63,150 bases of DNA from a virus (taxonomy: Duplodnaviria > Caudoviricetes), in IMG/VR virus record IMGVR_UViG_3300045974_000110, positions 1 to 63,150 of that record. The stretch is one strand, 5' to 3'. The position numbers and the translations under genes were made by a program. This document shows, one piece after another, positions 293-63,150 of this stretch. How positions within the stretch are numbered: the first letter of the stretch is position 1; each line of letters opens with the position of its first letter. The notes under the pieces are model-generated. The model had not been told where the DNA came from, searched no databases, and saw only the letters and a program-made list of their open reading frames with translations.

Positions 293-1468
293 ATGACGTT
301 CTCCAAGTTCGCGTCGGGCGGTCTGTCGCAGGACCGACTCGTCCGCAAGGAGGTCTCCCTCGGCACCATTCGGGAGAAGCTCCTCTGGCCGCAGACTCAC
401 ATCGGTCTGTCGATCGCGCCGTTCCTCGACGTGGCGACCGACGACGTGATCTTCGACTACATCAAGGGCGGTCTGTCCGACGGTCTGGCCCCGGCTCGCG
501 CCGAGGACGCCGAGGCCGAGCTGAGCCAGAAGGACGAGGCGCTCTACGGCCAGGGCCGTGCCGCCGTCATCGACTGGTCCATCAAGGACAAGTACACGGC
601 GTCTGACGTCACCCGCTACCGCGAGGCTCTCTACATCGCTTCGGCGACCGAGGGCATCGCGGCTGATGGGATGCCGCTCAACTTTGTGGGCCACACGGTC
701 GACGACTTCCAGACCCGCATGTCGCGCCACGACGCCCTCCGGCGTCGCAAGCTCGACAACCGGATCGAGTGGCTCATCATGACGGCCCTCGAGACCGGCA
801 AGATCACCTACAACGACGGCAAGATCAAGTTCACCGTCGACTACGGTCGCCCGGCGGCTCAGCAGGACCAGGCGCCGGCTTCCGGCACCTACGCCTCGAC
901 GACTCACGACCCCATCGGCGACATCATCGCCATGAACGCCGCTCACTACCTCCAGTACGGCTTCTACCTGCGTCGGGCGCTGTGCTCGCGTGCGTTCCTC
1001 CAGAGCCTCTGGAAGTCGAGCAAGTTCACGGCGATGACCGGCCTCGTGGTCGGTGGCTCGCCCGTCTCCAGCCCGATCGACCCGCTCTACCTGATCAACG
1101 GCTGGAACCCCCAGGCTGCCATCGCGGCAGTCGAGGCTGCGACCCAGGTGAAGTTCATCGAGTACGACTCGGTGTACCGCACCCGTCCGCAGGGCTCGAC
1201 GACCTGGACGAACAACCGCTTCCTCGGAGCGGGCAAGGTCATCTTCATGCCGGACGAGGGCGACCTCGGCGAGATCGACGACACGGCGATCGGCTTCGCC
1301 AAGACCCTCACCTCGCCGCACCCCGAGGGCAACTGGCAGTCGGGCTACTACGAGTGGGAGGACGAGAAGCGCGACCCGTGGCTCCACGTCCGCGGCTCGG
1401 GCATCAAGGCCTTCCCGGTGTTCCCCTACATGGAGTACACCCGCACCTGGAGCGTCACGCTCCCGTAG
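293..1468 (+). CDS. Major capsid protein (lambda gpE-like / HK97 fold)
   Basis: 391 aa from ATG 293 after a purine-rich RBS (AAGGAG...GAGG); LETGKITY..VDYG, DPIGDI and terminal IKAFPVFP resemble capsid-E family; strong GC3 bias; followed by a hairpin. Confidence 0.85.
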   Translation: MTFSKFASGGLSQDRLVRKEVSLGTIREKLLWPQTHIGLSIAPFLDVATDDVIFDYIKGGLSDGLAPARAEDAEAELSQKDEALYGQGRAAVIDWSIKDKYTASDVTRYREALYIASATEGIAADGMPLNFVGHTVDDFQTRMSRHDALRRRKLDNRIEWLIMTALETGKITYNDGKIKFTVDYGRPAAQQDQAPASGTYASTTHDPIGDIIAMNAAHYLQYGFYLRRALCSRAFLQSLWKSSKFTAMTGLVVGGSPVSSPIDPLYLINGWNPQAAIAAVEAATQVKFIEYDSVYRTRPQGSTTWTNNRFLGAGKVIFMPDEGDLGEIDDTAIGFAKTLTSPHPEGNWQSGYYEWEDEKRDPWLHVRGSGIKAFPVFPYMEYTRTWSVTLP

Positions 1469-3939: not shown

Positions 3940-4725
3940 ATGATCGTCCAGATCAGCGGCCTTCCGGGCGCTGGCAAGAGCACTCTTGCCAGCGCCCTGG
4001 CCGCACGCATCAACGCAGTCATCTGGAACGCTGACCGCGTAAGGGACAACCTCTGGCCCGACCTTGGTTTCTCGGTCGAGGCACGGAGCGAGCAGGCTCG
4101 TCGCATGGGGTTCCTTGCGCGCGAGATGGAAGAGCAGGGTCAGACCGTCATTGTCGACTTCGTGTGTCCCACGGGTCGGACTCGTGAGGCGTTCGGTAAG
4201 CCTGACGTGTTCATCTGGGTGGACCGCATCGACGCTGGTCGGTTCCAGGACACGAACCTGCTCTGGGAAGATCCGGAGACCTTCGATGTCAGGATTCCCT
4301 TCGGGCTCACCGTCGACGAAGAGCTCGACCTCATCTTCGCCGAGACTGATCTGGTGGACTGGCGTGCTCCTCATGCTCTCATGCTGGGTCGCTTTCAGCC
4401 TTGGCATGAAGGCCACGAGGCGCTCTATCAAGAGGCGGCTACCCGCACTGGACAGGTTGCTGTCGCTGTACGGGCAACTTCTGGACTGTCCCGAGACCCG
4501 CTGGTTTATGACGATGTGAGGTCGCGGATTCCGCACCACACTGTCATGCAGCTTCCGAACATCACGCACGTCATCTACGGGCGAGATGTCGGCTACGTCA
4601 TCGAGCAAGTTCACCTCGCGCCTGAGATCGAAGAGATCTCCGCAACTGTGAAGCGTAAGGAGCTCGGACTCGTCGGGGCTTCTGCGTGTCACAGTTGCGA
4701 TGGCGGTTGCCACGGAGCTGAGTGA
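3940..4725 (+). CDS. cysC: Adenylylsulfate-kinase-like P-loop kinase fused to an HxGH nucleotidyltransferase domain
   Basis: N-term GLPGAGKST, NADRVR, DLGFS..R..QARR, DFVCP (CysC-like); C-term LGRFQPWHEGH (HIGH superfamily). Confidence 0.8.
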   Translation: MIVQISGLPGAGKSTLASALAARINAVIWNADRVRDNLWPDLGFSVEARSEQARRMGFLAREMEEQGQTVIVDFVCPTGRTREAFGKPDVFIWVDRIDAGRFQDTNLLWEDPETFDVRIPFGLTVDEELDLIFAETDLVDWRAPHALMLGRFQPWHEGHEALYQEAATRTGQVAVAVRATSGLSRDPLVYDDVRSRIPHHTVMQLPNITHVIYGRDVGYVIEQVHLAPEIEEISATVKRKELGLVGASACHSCDGGCHGAE

Positions 4726-5600: not shown

Positions 5601-5872
5601 CACCTGAGGAGCAGCACGCGAGCGAGATCGCAGCGGCCCTCTCTGCGCTAGGTGAGCACACCTTTCGCAAGGGGTCTGTTCTCGTTCGCGTGTCTGGCTT
5701 CTACTCGGATGGTCCGCAGTGGACAGTCGAGAACGCATACGCTCTTTATGAGGGCGTTCCAGTCGCGCTCAATACTCCCCTTCACTTCGTCAACGCACTC
5801 CACAACGGACAGCCCGTAGAAGCAGCGTATGACATGATCGCTGGAGTCGTTCGCAGAACTGTTGGTGTGTAG
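5597..5872 (+). CDS. Hypothetical protein
   Basis: Overlaps both neighbours. Confidence 0.6.
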   Translation: MTPEEQHASEIAAALSALGEHTFRKGSVLVRVSGFYSDGPQWTVENAYALYEGVPVALNTPLHFVNALHNGQPVEAAYDMIAGVVRRTVGV

Positions 5873-8082
5873 TGGCTACTTACACCATTTACCAGTCAAC
5901 TCCAACTGGCAACAACATCCGTGTGAACCAGACTTACAACGGTGTGTATACAGACACATATCTTCAGTCCCTTACTCAGAATCAGGCCCTGCACGCAATC
6001 GGTGGAGATAAGTCTGGTAATACCTGGGATATCGACAGAAGTTCTGCTGCCATCTTTTCCATTCCCACGTTGGCAGCTGGTGAGCGTCTTGTTGATGCTG
6101 GATTCTTCATCAGAGATCCTTACAATGGCATCATCTCTCAACTGGCAATCCACGCAGCGAATGTTGGCACGAGTATTCAGAACTATGACTCCACTTGGAG
6201 TCTTGGTACTACTCTTGTAGCCAATCAGATCTTCAACTACCTGGCCGATACTCCAATTGGCCCTTCCGTAAATGCCAACTGGTCTGCTCTACAGAGTTGG
6301 TATGAGTCCGGATCTGGAACAGACAAAGCTGTAATCTTTCACGACGACAATGTTGGTACTGGAACAAACCAGCTCGGTGGACCCTCGTGGTCTACTTCGT
6401 TTAAACCGCACCTTACAGCTACTACGATTATCGGTGCCACCTTTTCGACTTCAGGAACTGCCACTGGAGTTGCGTGGGATGCCTCGATAACTTCAAACGC
6501 AATCACTCCGCCTGCTGGTGCAGCCTCTGCTACTGGAACTGCGTACAACCCCACCGTAACACTGACTGTACCTGTTCCTCTGATTCGATCTTCTGTCAAG
6601 AAGTATGGAGCACCAGGCAGCAGTACCGTTTCGTTCACAGATGCAGACTTTCCTGTCGCTCCACAGACTGGTGACTACATCGTTGCCATAGTGGAGTTTG
6701 TCGACCTTACCTACGGCTACGACTATAAGACAACGATTACGACTGGTAATGGTCTTACAACCAGGACAATGACATCCAGGACTGGTACTGCCTCACTTGC
6801 CGCAAATGGAATGGAGATCTTTGGAGACTGGTGGACATCTGGAGTAACTCGTACTTGGGGTCTTTACGGTGAGATCTGTGTTACTCTGTTCTGTGTCTAC
6901 AACGTCAATACGACAACTCCAATAGCAGGTGCCATCGCTGCTGCAGGTGGACCTCCGTATGTGACAACGACAGTACCCGGAACACTTGACCTCGCTGGTT
7001 ACATTACAGGCGGGTACTACTACAACTACACAGAGTTGTACACCAACTCTTCGGTCTATTACGGAACACCTTACTACCACTTTTGCTCAAAGGAGCAGTA
7101 CAATCCAGGCAGTACCCTTGCTCCGCACTACGCGAACAATATCTGGCAAGGCATTATCGCACTCAACTATGGCGCACCGACTGGTGTTAGTCCGAGTGCT
7201 GTAGATGCAGCTGGTACTGGTACTGCATACGATGCGACTGTCACGACCACTACCTCGGCAGTCAATGCTACTGCAGTCGATGCGGCAGGTGTTGGTACTT
7301 CCTACGATGCGCCGATCCAGATCCTGGTCAATGATACTGGTGCAGCCTCAACTGGTGTGGCGCAGACTCCTACGCCTGCGATGCTCGTCAACGATGCTGG
7401 TGCTACTGCTACTGGTACTGCATACGACGCGGCTGCTACGACTGCAGCACTTACGAACGCGGCGGCAGTCGATGCAGCAGCAACTGGTACGGCTTACGAC
7501 GCAACAGTCACGATCCTGGCCAACACGGCGACGAGCACGGCGACTGGTACGGCGGGAGACGTGGCACCGTCCGTGTCCGTGGCTGACACCGGGGCCACGG
7601 GTGCCGGTACGGCGTACGCACCGGGTCTCTCTGGCTCCCTGTCCGCGCCGGGGCTAGATGCTGCGTCGCTAGGTACAGCGTTTGACGCCACCGTGTCCAC
7701 GATCGTATCTTGGACCGCAGAAGCCGCCACAGCGACGGGTACTGCCAACGACGCGACGATCTCCCTAGTCGTTCAGACGTTCGCAAGTGCTGAGGTAGCA
7801 CTCGCAACGGGTGTCGCCGGTGACCTGAGTCAGACCGTTCTGGCGAACGCGAGTACCGCCGCCGCGAGTGTGACAGCCGACAATGCGTCTGCGCTACTTT
7901 ACATCTACTCGGGGATCGCAAGTATCTCGGGACTTTCTTACGATCCCGGCTACACCGCGAGCGCGAACCTCGCAGCCGAGGTAGCCCTGGGATCTGGTGC
8001 GGCGGGAGATGTCACCGTGGCGTCGACTGACCGATCGAATGCCAAGCGCGGCTTCGGAGTCGTCCGGACGAGGTTCTCATGA
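5872..8082 (+). CDS. Large Thr/Ala-rich repeat protein, putative virion fibre/appendage
   Basis: 736 aa; about 13 A-T-G-T-A-Y-D-A-T-V-like repeats around two aromatic-rich globular domains. Confidence 0.65.
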   Translation: MATYTIYQSTPTGNNIRVNQTYNGVYTDTYLQSLTQNQALHAIGGDKSGNTWDIDRSSAAIFSIPTLAAGERLVDAGFFIRDPYNGIISQLAIHAANVGTSIQNYDSTWSLGTTLVANQIFNYLADTPIGPSVNANWSALQSWYESGSGTDKAVIFHDDNVGTGTNQLGGPSWSTSFKPHLTATTIIGATFSTSGTATGVAWDASITSNAITPPAGAASATGTAYNPTVTLTVPVPLIRSSVKKYGAPGSSTVSFTDADFPVAPQTGDYIVAIVEFVDLTYGYDYKTTITTGNGLTTRTMTSRTGTASLAANGMEIFGDWWTSGVTRTWGLYGEICVTLFCVYNVNTTTPIAGAIAAAGGPPYVTTTVPGTLDLAGYITGGYYYNYTELYTNSSVYYGTPYYHFCSKEQYNPGSTLAPHYANNIWQGIIALNYGAPTGVSPSAVDAAGTGTAYDATVTTTTSAVNATAVDAAGVGTSYDAPIQILVNDTGAASTGVAQTPTPAMLVNDAGATATGTAYDAAATTAALTNAAAVDAAATGTAYDATVTILANTATSTATGTAGDVAPSVSVADTGATGAGTAYAPGLSGSLSAPGLDAASLGTAFDATVSTIVSWTAEAATATGTANDATISLVVQTFASAEVALATGVAGDLSQTVLANASTAAASVTADNASALLYIYSGIASISGLSYDPGYTASANLAAEVALGSGAAGDVTVASTDRSNAKRGFGVVRTRFS

Positions 8083-43400: not shown

Positions 43401-43846
43401 AGGTCGAGTCCATTCGCTCGGGAGTAGAGCCTGTGGAGCTTGTCCTCGAGTAGGGCAAGCGCCTCGCCTTGGTGATCGGTGAGGTGTTCGATTGCTCCGA
43501 GTGCCGTGACGGCCACGTCGAGGAGCTCTTGAATCACCTTGTCCATGTCGTTCGTGACACCCTTGCGAGGGTTCTGACCCGTCGCTCCGATGTAGGCAGA
43601 GATGACCTCGCCGGCCTCTTCGGCTACCTTGGCGAGACGTCCCCAGGTCACCGCCTCGGGGTCACGGTGCTCGTTGCCCTTGTCGATCCACTTCGAGAGC
43701 CAGACAAGGTCAGCCTCGGGTCCGAGGATCGGAAGGTAGATCCCAGCACACTGGTTGAGGTTGTCCTCGCCTGTAGAGCGAAGGTCTCGCCACATGTGGC
43801 CTCGGTGAGGAGTGGTCTGCAGGCAGTCGAGTTGCTTGGCGCTCAC
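43397..43846 (-). CDS. mazG: MazG-like NTP pyrophosphohydrolase
   Basis: KVAEEAGEV..GQNPRKG..ELLDVAVTA. Confidence 0.85.
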   Translation of the reverse strand: MSAKQLDCLQTTPHRGHMWRDLRSTGEDNLNQCAGIYLPILGPEADLVWLSKWIDKGNEHRDPEAVTWGRLAKVAEEAGEVISAYIGATGQNPRKGVTNDMDKVIQELLDVAVTALGAIEHLTDHQGEALALLEDKLHRLYSRANGLDL

Positions 43847-44679
43847 GTCAGATCAACACCCTTCCGCATCTTGTCGATCCCGACGCCGGTGTAGACCTGT
43901 GTAGTCTCGACGCTGCTGTGGCCGAGCAGCTCCTGGACGAGACGAATATCCATCGTCTTGTCGTAGACAGCCGTGGCGAACGTGGCTCGCAGATCGTGGC
44001 TGCTGATGTGGCGCTTGAGGCGTGCCTTCACACCCAGCCGGGTGATCGTACGCCGTGCGCGTCGGTCTGTCATCCCTACGACCGGCGTACCGGGGCCAGC
44101 GATGAAGGCGCGTGCGACAGGTGCGCTCAGTGCGGTCCACGCTTCGACGGACACCGGGACGATGCGGGACTTGTCACCCTTGCCACGGATCGTGAGGGTC
44201 ATCTCGTTCATGTTGATGTCCTCCCGAGTCACGGCGAGTGCCTCGGCGATACGGCACCCACAGAAACCGCACAGGGCGATGAGAGCGGCTTCCTCCTGGG
44301 TCTTGCTGTAGAGGATCAGCTTCCGCACACCGGCGATGCCTTCGGGCAGCGGGTGTGGCATGGACTTGGCGGGTGTCGGTGTCGAGTACTCCTCGAGCGT
44401 CGAACCCCAGCCTGCCCACTTTGCGAACGTACGGAGCGTGGTGAGTCGCCGGCCTGTGGTCTTGGGTGCGACGACGCGCCTGTTGGTCTGGAGCCAGTCC
44501 AGCGCTGCGTCCTCGAAGTCATCCTGGTCGAGGCCGGTCGGGTGGAGCAGGAGGAACTGTGCGAGATCGGAACGGTAGGCACGAGTCGTGTGCTCACTGC
44601 GCCCCCGCTGGTCGAGGTAGACGACGAACTTGTCTGCGCTTGCTGCGTCGAGTCGATCGGCGCGCTGTTCGTTTGCCAT
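43843..44679 (-). CDS. Tyrosine recombinase (XerC/D-like)
   Basis: T.RAY.SDL, GCRIAE, RGKGDK.R, HDLR, LLGH, TTQVY. Confidence 0.92.
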   Translation of the reverse strand: MANEQRADRLDAASADKFVVYLDQRGRSEHTTRAYRSDLAQFLLLHPTGLDQDDFEDAALDWLQTNRRVVAPKTTGRRLTTLRTFAKWAGWGSTLEEYSTPTPAKSMPHPLPEGIAGVRKLILYSKTQEEAALIALCGFCGCRIAEALAVTREDINMNEMTLTIRGKGDKSRIVPVSVEAWTALSAPVARAFIAGPGTPVVGMTDRRARRTITRLGVKARLKRHISSHDLRATFATAVYDKTMDIRLVQELLGHSSVETTQVYTGVGIDKMRKGVDLT

Positions 44680-44705
44680 GTCTTTCCTTTCGATCGGTGT
44701 CGAAG

Positions 44706-44978
44706 TCAGTCTTTCATTCGCCATTTGGCTTCGAGATCTTCTTCCAGTGTGGCCTTGCGCGTTGGCGCAGTCCAATCGTAGAAGTAGTGCTCGTCCTTCA
44801 GGAGACAGTCGCGGCACAGCCAAGCGACGTTGGTCGCCTTCTTTGCGCTGGAACCTTCTCCCATCGGTCGGAAGTGGATCTGCTTGACTGTCAACAGATC
44901 GCGCGCTTCCATGTCTGATCCCGCACCGGGCTTCTCACCACAGCGCGTGCAGCGGTAGTCGTACTTGCGACCCTTCAT
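44706..44978 (-). CDS. Zinc-ribbon hypothetical protein
   Basis: CTRC..LCRDC. Confidence 0.6.
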   Translation of the reverse strand: MKGRKYDYRCTRCGEKPGAGSDMEARDLLTVKQIHFRPMGEGSSAKKATNVAWLCRDCLLKDEHYFYDWTAPTRKATLEEDLEAKWRMKD

Positions 44979-55708: not shown

Positions 55709-56635
55709 TCAGTCCTTGGTGGCCCCGCGCACGCCCTTCTCGTTCTGGCCGGGGGTGACGCCGTTGAGCGACACCTTGCCCGACGCCGGGAAGAGACGGG
55801 CCGAGATGGCACCGGCGCTGGGCGCGTCGTCGCCGTACTCGGTCGACTTGTGCGTGCGGATCTCCGCGACCGTCAGGAACGCACCCGAGGGCTGCTCCGC
55901 GAAGGCCGACTCGATGTGCGCGCCCACGTCACGGCGAGTGCCCGTGAAGGGGGTGCCGGTGCCAGCCGACTTCGCGCCGGGCGCCTTGCCCGAGGCGACG
56001 CGCAGTGCGGAACGGGCGACGTAGCCCAGGCTGGGGGCCTCACCCTTCGCCTCGTCCGTGTTGGCCTCCCACGCCTTGTAGGCGCTGATCTCGCCCTGCG
56101 CCGTGGCGATGACCGGGGCGACCTTCTCGCTCCAGTCGCTGGCCACGCCGTCCGGCACGTCAGCCGTGACGAGGGCGTACCCGAGCTGGGCACCGGCGAC
56201 CTTGGCGACGAACCCCTCGGTGGGGTCTGCCGGGGCCTTCGGCTCCTTCGGGGTGGACGGCGCCTTGGCGGTCAGGCTGTCCTGCACCGCGACGAAGGCA
56301 CGGGCAGTGGCGATGTCGTTGTTGCCCATCGCCTCGCGCATCCCGTCGCCGAGGTGCTCCTTGGCCTTGTTCTTGGCCTTGACGCTGGGCAGGTCGCGGT
56401 ACGCGGCCTGGACCGGCGCGAGGCTGGCCTCGGGAACGGTGCCGGTCGAGGCGTCGGCCTCGGCGACGGCAGCCGTGGTGGCGGACTTGAACTCGGTGAG
56501 GTCGAACGCGACCTCGACCTTGGCCTCCTTGACGGGGGCCTCGGTGGTGTCGGCCTCGGTCGCCTCGACGACGTCGGTCTCGACGGTGGACTCAGTGGCC
56601 TCGGGGGCCTCGGCCTTGCTGTCACGACGAGCCAT
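55709..56635 (-). CDS. Ala-rich early protein, paralogous C-terminus to 60950-61624
   Basis: AGGAGG RBS, own promoter, extreme GC3 bias. Confidence 0.8.
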   Translation of the reverse strand: MARRDSKAEAPEATESTVETDVVEATEADTTEAPVKEAKVEVAFDLTEFKSATTAAVAEADASTGTVPEASLAPVQAAYRDLPSVKAKNKAKEHLGDGMREAMGNNDIATARAFVAVQDSLTAKAPSTPKEPKAPADPTEGFVAKVAGAQLGYALVTADVPDGVASDWSEKVAPVIATAQGEISAYKAWEANTDEAKGEAPSLGYVARSALRVASGKAPGAKSAGTGTPFTGTRRDVGAHIESAFAEQPSGAFLTVAEIRTHKSTEYGDDAPSAGAISARLFPASGKVSLNGVTPGQNEKGVRGATKD

Positions 56636-56709
56636 GTGAACGTACCTCCTGTGCGGGTCGCGCCGTCCTGACCAGGGTGTCGGGACCGTCACGCTTCTTG
56701 CCTAGGACG

Positions 56710-60365: not shown

Positions 60366-60704
60366 TCAGTGCCAGACCTTTCGGTACAGGTCGAACGTCT
60401 TCACGCCGTCGATCTTGAGCGGCATGTCCGGAAGCATCTTGTACCTTCCGTCGGTCTTCGTCCACATCCAGGCCTCACTGTAGACGGTCTGGATGCGATC
60501 GGTGTAGCGGGTCTCACTGAACTTCACACGCCCGACCACCAGAACGATCTTCGCGTCACTGATGACGCATCCGGTGATCTCCTCGTACTGTCCGAGGTGG
60601 AATCGCTTGCCCGTCAGCGCCTTGATCAGAGCCAGCTGCTGGTACGGGGTCAGGCCGTCAGCCGTCAGCTCGGTGCTGACGACCTCGTACGGCTTTTCGG
60701 TCAT
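60366..60704 (-). CDS. Hypothetical protein
   Basis: GGGAGG RBS. Confidence 0.65.
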   Translation of the reverse strand: MTEKPYEVVSTELTADGLTPYQQLALIKALTGKRFHLGQYEEITGCVISDAKIVLVVGRVKFSETRYTDRIQTVYSEAWMWTKTDGRYKMLPDMPLKIDGVKTFDLYRKVWH

Positions 60705-60803
60705 GATGTGCCTCCCCTTTCAGGGGTCAGGGGGGTATCCCCAACTTTCGGACTTTCCTGACTTTGTCAACTATGGCCCACTAAGGGCTGAACAGTCAAC
60801 AAG

Positions 60804-60876
60804 TGCTCGCCGGGGGAGTCGAACCCCCAGACGCGCGCCCAGAGCGATCAGGCGCGCGTCAGCCAGGTGGGCAAGC
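60804..60876 (-). ncRNA. 73-nt tRNA-like RNA lacking a D-stem
   Basis: 7-bp acceptor GCUUGCC/GGCGAGC plus discriminator A; T-arm GGGGG-UUCGACU-CCCCC; 10-bp central stem; 9-nt unpaired linker containing UGG. Confidence 0.65.
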
Positions 60877-60888
60877 GCCACCAGGCCC

Positions 60889-60922
60889 CCTGACCGCCAT
60901 CCGGTGAAAGATGGCGGTCAGG
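60889..60922 (-). terminator. Stem-loop after first early gene
   Basis: CCTGACCGCCATC...GATGGCGGTCAGG. Confidence 0.65.
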
Positions 60923-60949
60923 TGACCTAGGGGTGAACGGAAGGTGTCA

Positions 60950-61624
60950 CTAGGCGATCTTGACCGCGCCCTGGTTCGTACGGTCGGCATTCATGCGGGG
61001 CTCGACACCGGTGAGGGTGCAGGCCGATCCGTCACGCGGGAACAGCCGCGCGGCGATTGCGCCATCCGACGGTGCGCCTGCGGCACGGGCGATTTCGCCG
61101 CAGGTCAGGAAGGTGCCGGGCTCGACGTCGACGAAGGCGTCGTCGACGTAGGCCTGGACCGATCCGCGCGGAGCCTTGGTGCCGGTTCCGCCGACGATCT
61201 TGGACAGGCGTTCGATTGTGGCGGTGTCGCTCTCCGTGACCGTGTAGTTACGGATCGCAGCCGCGTCGAAGTCGAACGTCTGTGCGATTCGCCCGGCGGC
61301 GACGGTGAGGAGGGCTGCCGTCCGGATTGCGGCGACCTTGGGGTCGACCTGCGGACGGACACTCACCGTGACGAGGGCCTCACGGATCGTCATCCAGGCA
61401 CGGGCTGCGGCGATGTCCATGTCGCGCACGGCCTGGTCACGCTGCGTTTCCGTCCATGTGCGGGCAGTGGCCTTGTCACCCTGGGTGAGCGAGGCGTAGC
61501 TGTCGGTCACGGTGGCCAGGTCACTCTCGGTGACGATTCCGGTCCCCATGTCACGCAGGGTGAAGACGGCCTGCGCGGCGGTGGTGAACGACAGGTTAAC
61601 GCTGGTGGTGATTGTGGTGGACAT
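60950..61624 (-). CDS. First leftward early protein, paralogous C-terminus to 55709-56635
   Basis: GGGAGG RBS; FLT..EI..APS.GAI.ARLFP. Confidence 0.75.
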   Translation of the reverse strand: MSTTITTSVNLSFTTAAQAVFTLRDMGTGIVTESDLATVTDSYASLTQGDKATARTWTETQRDQAVRDMDIAAARAWMTIREALVTVSVRPQVDPKVAAIRTAALLTVAAGRIAQTFDFDAAAIRNYTVTESDTATIERLSKIVGGTGTKAPRGSVQAYVDDAFVDVEPGTFLTCGEIARAAGAPSDGAIAARLFPRDGSACTLTGVEPRMNADRTNQGAVKIA

Positions 61625-61741
61625 TTCGTGCCTCCCGATAGGGGTCGCCGTTCGATTCTGATAATCGAACGGTCACGGCGCGTCACATTCGGCCTTTTTC
61701 AGGCTTTTCAGGCTTTTCCGACTATTGCGACTAAAGGGCGC

Positions 61742-62376
61742 AAATCGGACATTTCGGCCTGGAATGTGACTCACCGTAATCGGCACGGTCACACCTAGTG
61801 AGGGCAAATCGAACACGTAATCGAACAGCCGTCCGACTTTCGGACGGATGTACGAAATGTCCGTTTTGTCCTACCTTGACCCTATTGAGTTGGAAAGTAA
61901 CGATATGTCACCGTTTGTCCCGATATGGTCTCTTCGTACCCATATGGGCCTTTCGGGCATATTGTCCCATATTGGGCGTTAAGTCCCAATATGAGGCGAT
62001 ATGTCCGTTTTAGGCGTGATGCCCGATACACCACGGTTCGCACGGGATTGTCGGTTCTGCCCCACATTCGTCACATTTGACCAGAATGGGCCAAAGGCCC
62101 GGAATGGTACGAATGTACTTAATGTCCCGAATGTTCACTTTGTCCGCCTTGTCCATGATGTCCGTTTTGTCCGTTCCAGCCGATGGCCTACGGCCATCCT
62201 ATGCCCGTGTAAGCGGTTACACAAGAAAATGTGACGCGCGTCACACGAATCAGTCCGATATGTCTGAAATGTCCGTTTTGGAAATCCGCATAGCGGGCAT
62301 GTTCGATTAAGTAATCGAACGGCTTTACGATACGGTGCGTGTCGTTTGCTTTTGTTACATCGGACAAAACGGACAT
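61742..62376. repeat. Dispersed ATGTCCGTTTT repeats
   Basis: Exact copies at 61857, 62001, 62158, 62269; inverted copy 62366-62376; inverted variant 61742-61752. Confidence 0.85.
62230..62245. promoter_or_regulatory. CRP/GlxR-type palindrome
   Basis: TGTGA-CGCGCG-TCACA. Confidence 0.6.
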
Positions 62377-62430
62377 CTCGGGCACTTTTCCGCTATGCGG
62401 ATTCACATGTTCACGAACACCGCATAGCGG
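62286..62430. repeat. Three CCGCATAGCGG pseudo-palindromes
   Basis: 62286-62296, inverted 62390-62400, 62420-62430. Confidence 0.8.
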
Positions 62431-62499
62431 GCATGGTTACCGAGGTTAGTTGAAGATGAAACGATCTTGAAGTAAACGGTTACATGGGCACGTCTGTAA

Positions 62500-62851
62500 T
62501 CGAACACTCGTTCGATTAGTGCGGGCGTACGGCGCGGGATTCGTACACCAGTCCGATTGAAGCTTCAATCGTACATGTGTACGCCTACACGCCTTAATGC
62601 GACTGGTGTTCGATTAGTTGTGGATAGGGGACTCGACGACATGTCGATGTGCCGATTTGTCGACATGTTGACATGTCGGTGTGGCTCGGAGTCGAACACA
62701 TGTACTATTGAGTCCTATTGCGACTCGTGTTCGATTAGGTAGGGGGATATCGAACGTCTGTTCGATTGAAGAATCAACCGTACAGGTGTACGATTCCCGC
62801 GTGAAAGTCGAACATGTGTCCGATAACACACATTATCGAACGTGTGTACGA
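62500..62851. promoter_or_regulatory. Array of LexA/SOS-box-like palindromes (TCGAAC-N4-GTTCGA)
   Basis: Perfect at 62500 and 62750; one mismatch at 62808 and 62836; degenerate at 62541, 62569, 62598, 62692, 62719, 62778. Confidence 0.8.
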
Positions 62852-63067
62852 AAGCCATTCTCGTTGAATCGTCAACTACCCCCGGTCCGAAAATCGGACG
62901 GCCCCCCGGTGGGGGCGCGCTCTCAAGGCACAGTTTACGCGCACAACTTTTTTCAGATCTGATACCGTAAGAACGACTTGTCATCACCACATGTTTAGCC
63001 GATTAGGCTAGTCCCACCCACAGGGAAACACATCTTGTTTGATAAGTACCAGTCCTCTACCCCCGAA

Positions 63068-63119
63068 TGCTCTATATGATGGTATATCCCATATATATGC
63101 TCTATATTATGCTCTATAT
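63068..63119. repeat. AT-rich ATGCTCTATAT direct repeats (3 copies)
   Basis: Starts at about 63068, 63098, 63109 in the most AT-rich tract. Confidence 0.7.
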
Positions 63120-63150
63120 CTACTACTATCCTTGCAGGTCAGGGGCCTAT

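Follow-up and report, generated by a model that had tools for sequence, protein, structure and literature searches.

A gene-free region dense in operator-like motifs, with an array of LexA-type boxes, upstream of the leftward operon of a distant relative of Gordonia cluster CS phages

What can more than a kilobase of phage DNA do that carries no gene and is packed with operator-like motifs? The question is raised by the last 1.5 kb of IMG/VR virus record IMGVR_UViG_3300045974_000110 (Duplodnaviria; Caudoviricetes), an incomplete phage genome whose 63,150 bases were analysed as a whole and are referred to here as the window. The first letters of the window lie inside the gene that precedes the major capsid gene, tail and lysis genes continue on the plus strand to ~27.3 kb, and an uninterrupted block of minus-strand genes then runs from 27.4 to 61.6 kb. 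This block forms a ~34-kb operon that is read leftwards and contains replication genes as well as small early genes; the region in question is directly upstream of it. A first-pass annotation, made from the letters alone, had proposed that the region is a multi-factor DNA sponge or landing pad and represents an undescribed system. We find that it is an unusually elaborate example of a known, unexplained feature of a phage group, and we consider it on balance probable that it is this phage's copy of the group's long non-coding terminal and early-control region, acting in cis by binding host LexA, possibly CRP, and phage proteins.

Gene absence, repeats and LexA-type boxes

The region begins next to the start of gp224 at 61624, the first gene of the minus-strand block, and has a guanine-plus-cytosine (GC) content of 0.50, compared with 0.60 for the rest of the window. 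The first-pass annotation had called 61625–62880 gene-free; no genes were found there, but the end was set too early, as the stretch reaches 63150 and beyond, and the contig from one sequencing run extends 1503 nt past the window end. Mechanically called open reading frames (ORFs) in the region reach 93 aa. None of them passed the third-position GC filter that recovers the genes of this genome, and none of the nine tested (61–93 aa) matched a PHROG, in agreement with the earlier view that no credible ORF is present.

Repeats were counted in 61625–62880 and in 300 dinucleotide shuffles of it. Thirty-eight 8-mers occurred at least three times (shuffle mean 0.89, maximum 4), 33 inverted 6-mers were separated by 0–8 nt (mean 3.7, maximum 11), and both counts topped those of all 97 other 1256-bp segments of the genome (maxima 22 and 10). 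Taken alone, perfect 10-bp palindromes were not significant, the four found being equalled in 26 of 300 shuffles. The motifs that the first-pass annotation had listed were all recovered at their positions; its expectation of enrichment over composition-matched shuffles is borne out by the repeated 8-mers and inverted 6-mers, and its description of several distinct operator-like families packed densely into the region is supported by their counts and positions (Table 1).

One of these families is an array of ten LexA-type boxes. Boxes were scored against TCGAAC-N4-GTTCGA, the LexA consensus of Mycobacterium tuberculosis and an actinobacterial 16-bp palindrome (PMC3381160, PMC9380542). Both perfect matches in the genome are in the region, as are five of the six with at most one mismatch and 10 of the 19 with at most two (two perfect, three with one mismatch and five with two), the region accounting for 2.4% of the genome; when the whole window was shuffled, sites with up to two mismatches averaged 4.07 and numbered at most 9, compared with the 19 observed. 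Of the 14 copies of the half-site AATCGAAC in the genome, 11 are in the region. Box centres in the array are 27–31 bp apart, except that those of the first two boxes are 41 bp apart and that one gap measures 94 bp. The units comprise three single ones of the form TAATNNNAC-N4-GTTCGATTAG, flanked by TAAT...ATTAG, and three double ones with boxes 12 bp apart; TTGAAGCTTCAA and TTGAAGAATCAA are 12-bp spacers of double units, and the spacer of the first double unit is palindromic. The LexA motif of Streptomyces venezuelae is given as tCGAAC-N4-GNNCGa with validated variants such as TCGTACGTACGTTC, GTAC variants included (PMC9380542), and the GTAC variants of the array fall within this published range. 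The earlier proposal that motifs in the region resemble sites of the host global regulators LexA and CRP thus holds for both consensus patterns, at the level of sequence. Given the match to the consensus and the conservation described below, the boxes may be bound by host LexA.

Equivalent regions in related phages

Judged by its proteins, the window comes from a siphophage that is distant kin of the Gordonia cluster CS phages (Woes, GMA7 and Katyusha), the Rhodococcus phages Perlina and ReqiDocB7 (DocB7 below) and the Tsukamurella phage TIN3. Its major capsid protein is 52% identical to those of cluster CS, Perlina, ReqiDocB7 and the TIN phages, its AAA-ATPase is 44–47% identical to those of the same relatives, and the phage collection contained no nearer relative. 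The order of genes is also the same, from a CobT/vWA protein through the AAA-ATPase and small genes to the gap, the CobT/vWA protein adjoining the ATPase as in cluster CS and DocB7-type relatives. Together with a tyrosine recombinase among the leftward genes, the window therefore shares with the group all four of the proteins by which membership was judged. More than 100 isolates have this capsid and ATPase. Terminase, portal, helicase and primase genes were not found in the gene content of the window.

The region was compared with the equivalent gaps of nine relatives, namely Woes, GMA7, Katyusha, Perlina, ReqiDocB7, TIN3, GordTnk2, Reynauld and the uncultivated contig L005, in which the gap was delimited from ORFs and GC content only. 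All nine have, at the equivalent place, a stretch of 1.4–2.5 kb that is gene-free or holds only small ORFs (six of 29–91 codons are annotated in Perlina, two in GMA7 and two in TIN3). In the relatives the gap adjoins the genome ends and is situated upstream of the early operon, which is read leftwards; the operon on the other side of the gap encodes helicase and primase. The window's region likewise has more than 1 kb devoid of protein genes and multiple inverted repeats, and on its left it borders the first gene of the leftward operon; its right side and the genome ends would be beyond the window. Direct terminal repeats, with exact identity between the two record ends, lie inside the equivalent region in Woes (184 bp) and Reynauld (362 bp), so the earlier idea that the region is near a genome end, and near an injected one, is reasonable by analogy.

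The claim of an undescribed system did not survive this comparison, since the equivalent region has been in print since 2015. Liu et al. described a gene-free, inverted-repeat-rich region in five phages, with GordTnk2, GTE7 and ReqiDocB7 named, in passages that assign it no function (PMC4563357); a published repeat region of phage T5 is a further analogue. The region of GordTnk2, GTE7 and ReqiDocB7 belongs to the same supergroup, occupies the same place in the genome, measures 1.2–2.5 kb, and is likewise gene-free, rich in inverted repeats and lower in GC, and an AT-rich tract with a GCAGGTCAG core is common to it and to the region studied here. The 2015 passages note the oddity without motifs or host-factor boxes, and this phage differs from those phages by a roughly tenfold amplification of the LexA-type box and by motif families that are mostly private. 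New in the present analysis are three points: LexA-type and CRP-type boxes are conserved across the group, so is the AT-rich/GCAGGTCAG core, and this phage has multiplied its LexA-type box tenfold.

Besides a TATA tract, only two kinds of palindrome, LexA-type and CRP-type, recur across the gaps of the relatives. The core GAAC-N4-GTTC is present in exactly one copy in each of the gaps of Woes, GMA7, Perlina, DocB7 and TIN3 (five of nine), and the whole genomes of the nine relatives hold 19 such cores in ~677 kb. As a control against a post-hoc choice of GAAC, all 256 palindromes of the form 4-N4-4 were scored across the 17 kb of the nine gaps; TATA and ATAT, both derived from the AT tract, were the only ones that occurred in more gaps than GAAC, and each of the remaining 253 occurred in at most two. 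Relative to the full consensus, the box has one mismatch in Perlina and DocB7 (ACGAACATTTGTTCGA), two in Woes and GMA7, and three in TIN3. The words TTCGATTAG and TGCGACTCG adjoin the SOS box in this phage and in Perlina, and TTCGATTAG does so in DocB7. That phages of three host genera keep the site while the rest of the gap changes is the expected look of a site for a host factor.

The CRP-type site of the region is a perfect TGTGA-N6-TCACA palindrome, TGTGACGCGCGTCACA, corresponding to a CRP/GlxR consensus that is conserved across distant bacteria (reviewed in PMC10187061). Perfect copies were found in three of the nine gaps, and GTGA-N6-TCAC was the top pattern with a 6-nt spacer other than TATA (three of nine). 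Of the motif families listed in the first-pass annotation, the LexA-type and CRP-type sites are thus the two that gain support from the relatives; the other families are private. Perfect TGTGA-N6-TCACA sites were also located ~95–135 nt upstream of the annotated start of the homologue of gp327, a paralogue of gp224, in four of the seven relatives that have the gene (Woes, L001 15693; GMA7, L006 5229; TIN3, L007 5721; Katyusha, L014 5107), and no such site was found before the homologues of DocB7, Perlina and L005 or before gp327 of this phage. A site in front of a gp327-family gene fits autoregulation by that putative phage regulator equally well. The palindrome upstream of gp327 is preceded by GGTACTAG/GGTACTAC in Woes, GMA7 and TIN3 and not in Katyusha, and CTAGTAC is the most repeated gap word in Woes (8 copies), GMA7 (10) and TIN3 (6). 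Read as minus-strand RNA, the CRP-type site of the region would form a 7-bp hairpin (62229–62246) followed by a T-rich tail (z −1.6, weak).

A further shared element, derived in this analysis and not from the literature, is a composite of an AT-rich tract and a core of the form (C)GCAGGTCAG(R)G, usually followed 4–6 nt later by GTTTTT. In this phage the tract is followed by GCAGGTCAGGGGCCT at the very end of the window; the gaps of Perlina, DocB7, Woes and TIN3 keep such a tract with CGCAGGTCAGRG after it, the order of tract and core is reversed in GordTnk2, and the two are apart in Reynauld. The core was found in seven of the nine gaps, as the exact 8-mer CAGGTCAG in six and as the overlapping 9-mer CGCAGGTCA also in GMA7, with five copies in Perlina, four in DocB7, two each in Woes and GordTnk2, and further occurrences in TIN3 and Reynauld. 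Positions of the composite across these gaps are L003 15340–15390 and 15549; L004 16450–16500 and 16684; L002 386 and 582; L007 9548; L013 5914 and 6083; and L015 744. Pairs of cores are often 170–196 bp apart; those of Woes and Perlina are direct, those of DocB7 and GordTnk2 convergent. The composite is kept among phages whose proteins are only 35–50% identical; it might serve as an origin, in packaging, or as the substrate of the conserved tyrosine recombinase. At least eight repeated CCCTAAAT/CCTAAATA words flank the TATATA/GCAGGTCAG core of DocB7 (L004 16390–16770), an arrangement that recalls T7, where short repeat arrays adjoin the terminal repeat.

Closest to the operon, an inverted repeat CCGTTC(G/A)ATT...AAT(C/T)GAACGG stands just before the first gene in this phage and in Woes, the Woes version being CCGTTCAATTC-N7-GAATTGAACGG at the equivalent place.

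Proposed cis-acting control and alternative readings

Cis-acting control from a terminal region is ranked first because the region is directly upstream of the ~34-kb operon, because this first inverted repeat is conserved with Woes, because the comparable arrays in other phages that could be placed lie in promoter regions, and because the only palindromes conserved across hosts are of host-regulator type. By analogy with the relatives, the region would lie beside or across the physical genome ends, and its operator arrays would set the timing of the leftward operon and perhaps also determine when the neighbouring AT-rich/GCAGGTCAG core is used for replication or packaging. Host factors would read two types of site, the LexA-type SOS boxes (~10 copies) and the one CRP-type box, and early phage activity would thereby be tied to host DNA damage and to the cyclic AMP (cAMP) state. 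The families ATGTCCGTTTT, CCGCATAGCGG, CCCATATGGG and CGACATGTCG and the TGTCC 9-mers are most likely sites for the phage's own DNA-binding proteins, with the winged-helix-like gp224/gp327 family as a candidate reader. The binding events, promoters, genome-end position and direction of regulation in this scheme are what we infer.

Support for such a reader comes from an AlphaFold model of gp327, built on a 55-sequence alignment with a mean predicted local distance difference test score (pLDDT) of 83.8. The C-terminal domain of the model has a helix-strand-helix-helix-strand-strand topology, that is, a winged-helix-like one, and residues 151–222 of gp224 match the C-terminal part of PHROG 6708 that takes this form in gp327. 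The best domain-sized Foldseek matches of the model were winged-helix domains of LOTUS, Zur and Rok (target template modelling (TM) score ~0.6). A PDB sequence search with gp327 gave no match, and its Atlas rows were all below the bar. The family has 229 database relatives at E ≤ 1e-5, nearly all of them unnamed. We regard gp224/gp327 as candidate DNA binders and as a lead only.

Several findings weigh against cis-acting control by host factors and a winged-helix family. A scan of 60700–63150 for sigma-70-type promoters returned one site, compared with 1.6 in shuffles, and that site was outside the region; a looser scan gave four weak candidates, and the counts of both promoter and terminator scans were no higher than in shuffles. 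A simple operator would be expected closer to the first start codon than the 870 bp at which the LexA-type array begins. GAAC-N4-GTTC is missing from four of the nine gaps (the L005 uncultivated virus genome (UViG), GordTnk2, Reynauld and the unique part of Katyusha), and the Woes box, which lies 147 bp inside the terminal repeat at the left and thus at the other physical end, cannot act on the early operon as long as the genome is linear. Outward-facing (61648, 62300) and direct (61807) arrangements of the half-site AATCGAAC are also present; these are unsuited to a LexA dimer, and the real binder of the family could therefore be a phage protein; it is possible that a phage protein reading AATCGAAC binds the whole half-site family. 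Foldseek returned no match to the gp327 model at E ≤ 0.001, the winged-helix call being topology-based, and a Pfam scan of 40 minus-strand proteins detected no domain of the DNA-binding kind.

Viral contigs were also scanned for two perfect CGAAC-N4-GTTCG boxes 8–38 nt apart. At least 119 loci with paired perfect cores were found, compared with a few by a rough chance estimate; among the matches listed, 65 loci have two cores within 500 bp, 32 have three, 13 four, six five and three seven. One of the seven-core loci (L101) has a 21-bp period in DNA of 68% GC and may be a coding repeat. A 67-kb IMG/VR contig (L018; GC 0.61) carries nine boxes at 7081–7331 with 26–35 bp spacing and with the same ATCGAAC flank and GTAC variants as the array studied here. 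Its array lies between divergent genes, ahead of small genes organised as a leftward operon, and Pfam gave no clue to the neighbouring genes. Two contigs that are distant kin of this phage by tblastx (L025, L111) have three boxes each in a 650-bp divergent intergenic region. Regular spacing of 21–40 bp between 5–9 palindromes was seen in L018, L036 (13046–13253), L033 (811–910) and L070 (1930–2320). Predicted multi-box operators of LexA type are thus common in phage control regions, and long arrays are rare, not unique.

A replication origin and/or packaging-initiation region is a possible, though unlikely, explanation, and one that may coexist with cis-acting control. The TGTCC 9-mers, CGACATGT and the palindromes spaced 28–31 bp apart would then serve a phage initiator or terminase as iterons, with the AT-rich 63070–63120 as an unwinding element and the GCAGGTCAG core as an initiator, nick or recombinase site. 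The AT-rich tract (GC 0.29) beside a conserved 12–20-nt core in this phage and six relatives, the helicase/primase operon across the gap, and the distance of only 200–400 bp between core and terminal repeat in Woes and Reynauld are all consistent with it; Tandem Repeats Finder (TRF) confirmed the tandem arrays, which match the combination of iterons and AT-rich element in form only. However, no initiator was recognised among the genes of the window, the helicase/primase side lying beyond it, the iteron-like families are private whereas the core is shared, and cumulative GC skew gives no origin signal in the region. Boxes for host DnaA are also unconvincing, as TTGTCCACA, the actinobacterial high-affinity DnaA box (PMC4285127), has no perfect copy and the region holds one of nine genome sites with one mismatch and 11 of 150 with up to two. 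That the DNA itself is a sponge, hundreds of replicated copies of the ten-box array and other sites titrating LexA, CRP and further regulators and derepressing host regulons without RecA activation, appears highly improbable. Ten boxes in 355 bp compared with single boxes in five relatives, the distance of the array from start codons with one weak promoter candidate only within it, and the 5–7 perfect cores at nine of the at least 119 viral-contig loci (with the reservation on L101) would suit a sponge, but only two of the boxes are perfect and four of ten have three mismatches, which would make many of them weak sinks, a single CRP site is not credible as a sink, and the arrays that were placed (L018, L025, L111) occupy divergent promoter regions, the usual location of operators. 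The sources returned by a literature search, in the text that was available, describe neither such arrays nor titration of LexA by phage DNA.

Even more doubtful is an entry-related landing pad, where bound host proteins would pause or guide DNA entry or shield the first-entering end in the manner of the T5 injection-stop region; the terminal repeats inside the equivalent region of relatives agree with this proposal, but the T5 model is itself a preprint hypothesis. The least probable reading is that non-coding RNAs or very small proteins, one or several, are encoded in the region, with repeats that reflect RNA structure. The region has many inverted repeats, Perlina has its six small annotated ORFs, and a weak plus-strand promoter-like match (TTGAAG-17-TACGAT, 62766–62794), the sole plus-strand match of −35/−10 type, which is supplied by the TTGAAGAATCAA copy and overlaps the box at 62778, precedes two hairpins at 62885–62916. 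These hairpins are no stabler than shuffles (z −0.2 and −0.3) and are not evidence for a terminator, and Rfam searched at E up to 1 returned only three microRNA models at 21–22 bits, compared with gathering thresholds of 65–100, so that the RNA reading is weakly disfavoured on both controls; motif copies also occur on both strands and as perfect DNA palindromes, and the ORFs tested lacked PHROG matches as described above.

Known systems resemble the region in part. The injection-stop (iss) region of T5 is described as an untranslated repeat region with host DnaA boxes at the left terminal repeat (Davison, bioRxiv 10.1101/866236), and the likeness consists of a large untranslated stretch near a direct terminal repeat, with repeats, inverted repeats, palindromes and boxes for host proteins. 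The T5 boxes are for DnaA, whereas DnaA likeness is weak here and the boxes resemble those of LexA and CRP; T5 also belongs to an unrelated phage family with hosts of an unrelated phylum, and this group is not known for two-step injection. Direct use of host LexA through more than one SOS box at a phage promoter is described for Bacillus phage GIL01, in which promoter P1 has several SOS boxes and gp7 is a co-repressor (PMC4551915). Such LexA-operated switches belong to temperate phages and have one to three boxes overlapping a mapped promoter, in contrast to ~10 boxes and no mapped promoter in this phage, from a group regarded as lytic. CTXphi and the tum gene of coliphage 186 are further switches of this kind. 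Many copies of a short operator for one regulator are also found in actinophages as the operators and stoperators of cluster A mycobacteriophages (PMC5559632, PMC13313380), which are asymmetric 13–14-mers spread genome-wide in one orientation, unlike the families here, all of them confined to 1.5 kb and several of them palindromic. Dispersal of the stoperator type was not seen, as the copies outside the region number zero of six for ATGTCCGTTTT, three of 14 for AATCGAAC and one of four for CCGCATAGCGG. The datA locus of E. coli, which titrates DnaA, offers the concept behind a sponge, a cluster of sites that holds a regulator, and differs in being chromosomal and specific to one factor.

A bolder interpretation, which we consider distinctly improbable, is that the lineage uses LexA and CRP as sensors at the genome end, where a conserved SOS box and a cAMP-receptor box beside the terminal repeat and the AT-rich/GCAGGTCAG core would gate early transcription, replication or entry by the damage and energy state of the host, that the amplified array is in addition a LexA sink inducing SOS without RecA, and that it marks a widespread, undescribed class of phage cis-elements with arrays of 5–9 boxes in unrelated viral contigs (L018, L036, L033, L070). 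If LexA does bind, supposedly strictly lytic phages would read the DNA-damage state of the host, which matters for how they behave when hosts are stressed and for their application against mycolata that cause foaming or disease; if it does not, the arrays would be ordinary phage operators or iterons and the finding routine. Woes and Perlina are cultivable and have single boxes, so the question is answerable at the bench, and an oddity of a large actinophage group noted since at least 2015 is now split into testable parts.

Private motif families and other features of the window

Most repeated words are private to each phage, and no iteron-like family of the region is common to any relative. 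All six genome copies of ATGTCCGTTTT with at most one mismatch are in the region, where 0.47 would be expected (100 shuffles), and GTCACA/TGTGAC has six of its 49 genome copies there (1.0 expected). The word AATGTGA is common to the region and the gaps of Perlina and DocB7. The three copies of CCGCATAGCGG surround the second inverted repeat of AATCGAAC. Some resemblances were considered and dropped. An MtrA site (GTCACAGCG) agrees only in the hexamer GTCACA, the likeness of CCGCATAGCGG and TGTCCGTT to ClgR and PafBC/RecA-NDp sites was abandoned for unfit spacing or bases, and the idea that the TGTCC 9-mers and the CGACATGT cluster are DnaA boxes was rejected as weak.

Table 1. Positions of features in the 63,150-base window
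Feature	Position	Strand	Remarks
Major capsid gene	293–1468		
Tyrosine recombinase gene	43843–44823	−	Among early/replication genes; intact
gp327 gene	55709–56692	−	gp224 paralogue; PHROG 6708
tRNA-Gln(CTG) gene	60803–60872	−	Just downstream of first early gene
gp224 gene	60950–61624	−	224 aa; first gene of leftward operon
Gene-free, lower-GC stretch	61625–63150		To window end
Inverted repeat CCGTTCGATT-N5-AATCGAACGG (GTTCGATT-N-AATCGAAC pair)	61648–61672		24–48 nt upstream of gp224 start codon
GTCACA/TGTGAC half-sites	61682–61793		61682, 61765, 61788; also 62070, 62230, 62240
Tandem TTTTCAGGC	61696–61718	+	2.6 copies
Direct AATCGAAC pair, then three degenerate LexA-type boxes	61807–61855		Boxes 61809, 61821, 61840; 1–2 mismatches
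ATGTCCGTTTT family	61857–62376	+ and −	61857, 62001, 62158, 62269 (+); 62366 (−); one-mismatch copy 61742 (−)
Palindrome family CCCATATGGG, CCCATATTGGG, CCCAATATGAGG	61939–61996		61939, 61966; degenerate third copy 61985
Seven head-to-tail 9-mers WTGTNCNNN	62113–62175	+	Core TGTCC; TRF: 4.1 copies at 62139–62175
CRP-type palindrome TGTGACGCGCGTCACA	62230–62245		Perfect TGTGA-N6-TCACA
CCGCATAGCGG	62286–62430	+ and −	62286, 62420 (+); 62390 (−)
Inverted repeat TGTTCGATT-N4-AATCGAACGG (GTTCGATT-N-AATCGAAC pair)	62300–62322		LexA-type half-sites facing outwards
Array of 10 LexA-type boxes	62497–62851		355 bp; boxes (mismatches) 62500 (0), 62541 (2), 62569 (3), 62598 (3), 62692 (2), 62719 (3), 62750 (0), 62778 (3), 62808 (1), 62836 (1)
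TTGAAGCTTCAA, TTGAAGAATCAA, TTGAATCGTCAA	62557–62875		62557, 62766, 62864; latter two are 2-mismatch copies
CGACATGT tandem 8-mers	62637–62679		5.2 copies; include palindrome CGACATGTCG; occupy 94-bp gap of LexA-type array
Two adjacent 6-bp GC-rich hairpins	62885–62916		
AT-rich tract, then GCAGGTCAGGGGCCT	63070–63148	+	Tract 63067–63125, GC 0.29; ends 2 nt before window end

The stretch was present in three runs labelled pond metagenome, in all of them as contigs, and none of the runs listed is recorded as RNA. In two of these (X2, X3) the fragments are near-identical, with few single-base differences in low-depth contigs and no usable variation. Megablast and blastn of 61600–63150 against the phage collection gave no match, and exact-pattern scans with two stretches of the window gave none in viral contigs or metagenome contigs. 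No homologue of gp224 was found in the phage collection or in viral contigs; in the protein database it has homologues P0002 and P0003 at 69–70% identity, the latter on a 20.6-kb contig. A homologue of gp327 (P0008, 67% identity) is on a 74-kb contig, and a scan of viral contigs with it matched only a distant UViG. Another contig, L009 (4.4 kb), encodes a gp327 homologue of 91% identity and stops before the gene-free region.

The tyrosine recombinase keeps every catalytic residue that can be recognised by eye (R, K, H-x-x-R, H and Y), and the idea that it is a dead recombinase serving as a repressor was dropped on that account. A reading of the region as attP was dropped as well, the recombinase gene being 17 kb away. 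A 2026 paper considers such phages lytic and the recombinase unlikely to be an integrase (PMC13313380). The relatives carry one to three tRNA genes each, in the same part of the genome in Perlina and elsewhere in Woes. Another role that can be imagined for the recombinase is the circularisation of terminally repeated DNA, an idea modelled on Cre/lox of phage P1, which does this. Among the head and tail genes is a kinase-like or thymidylate-kinase-like gene (3940–4725, plus strand; PHROG 10255), and an unexplained 736-aa ORF at 5872–8082 lies in a lower-GC patch (0.50).

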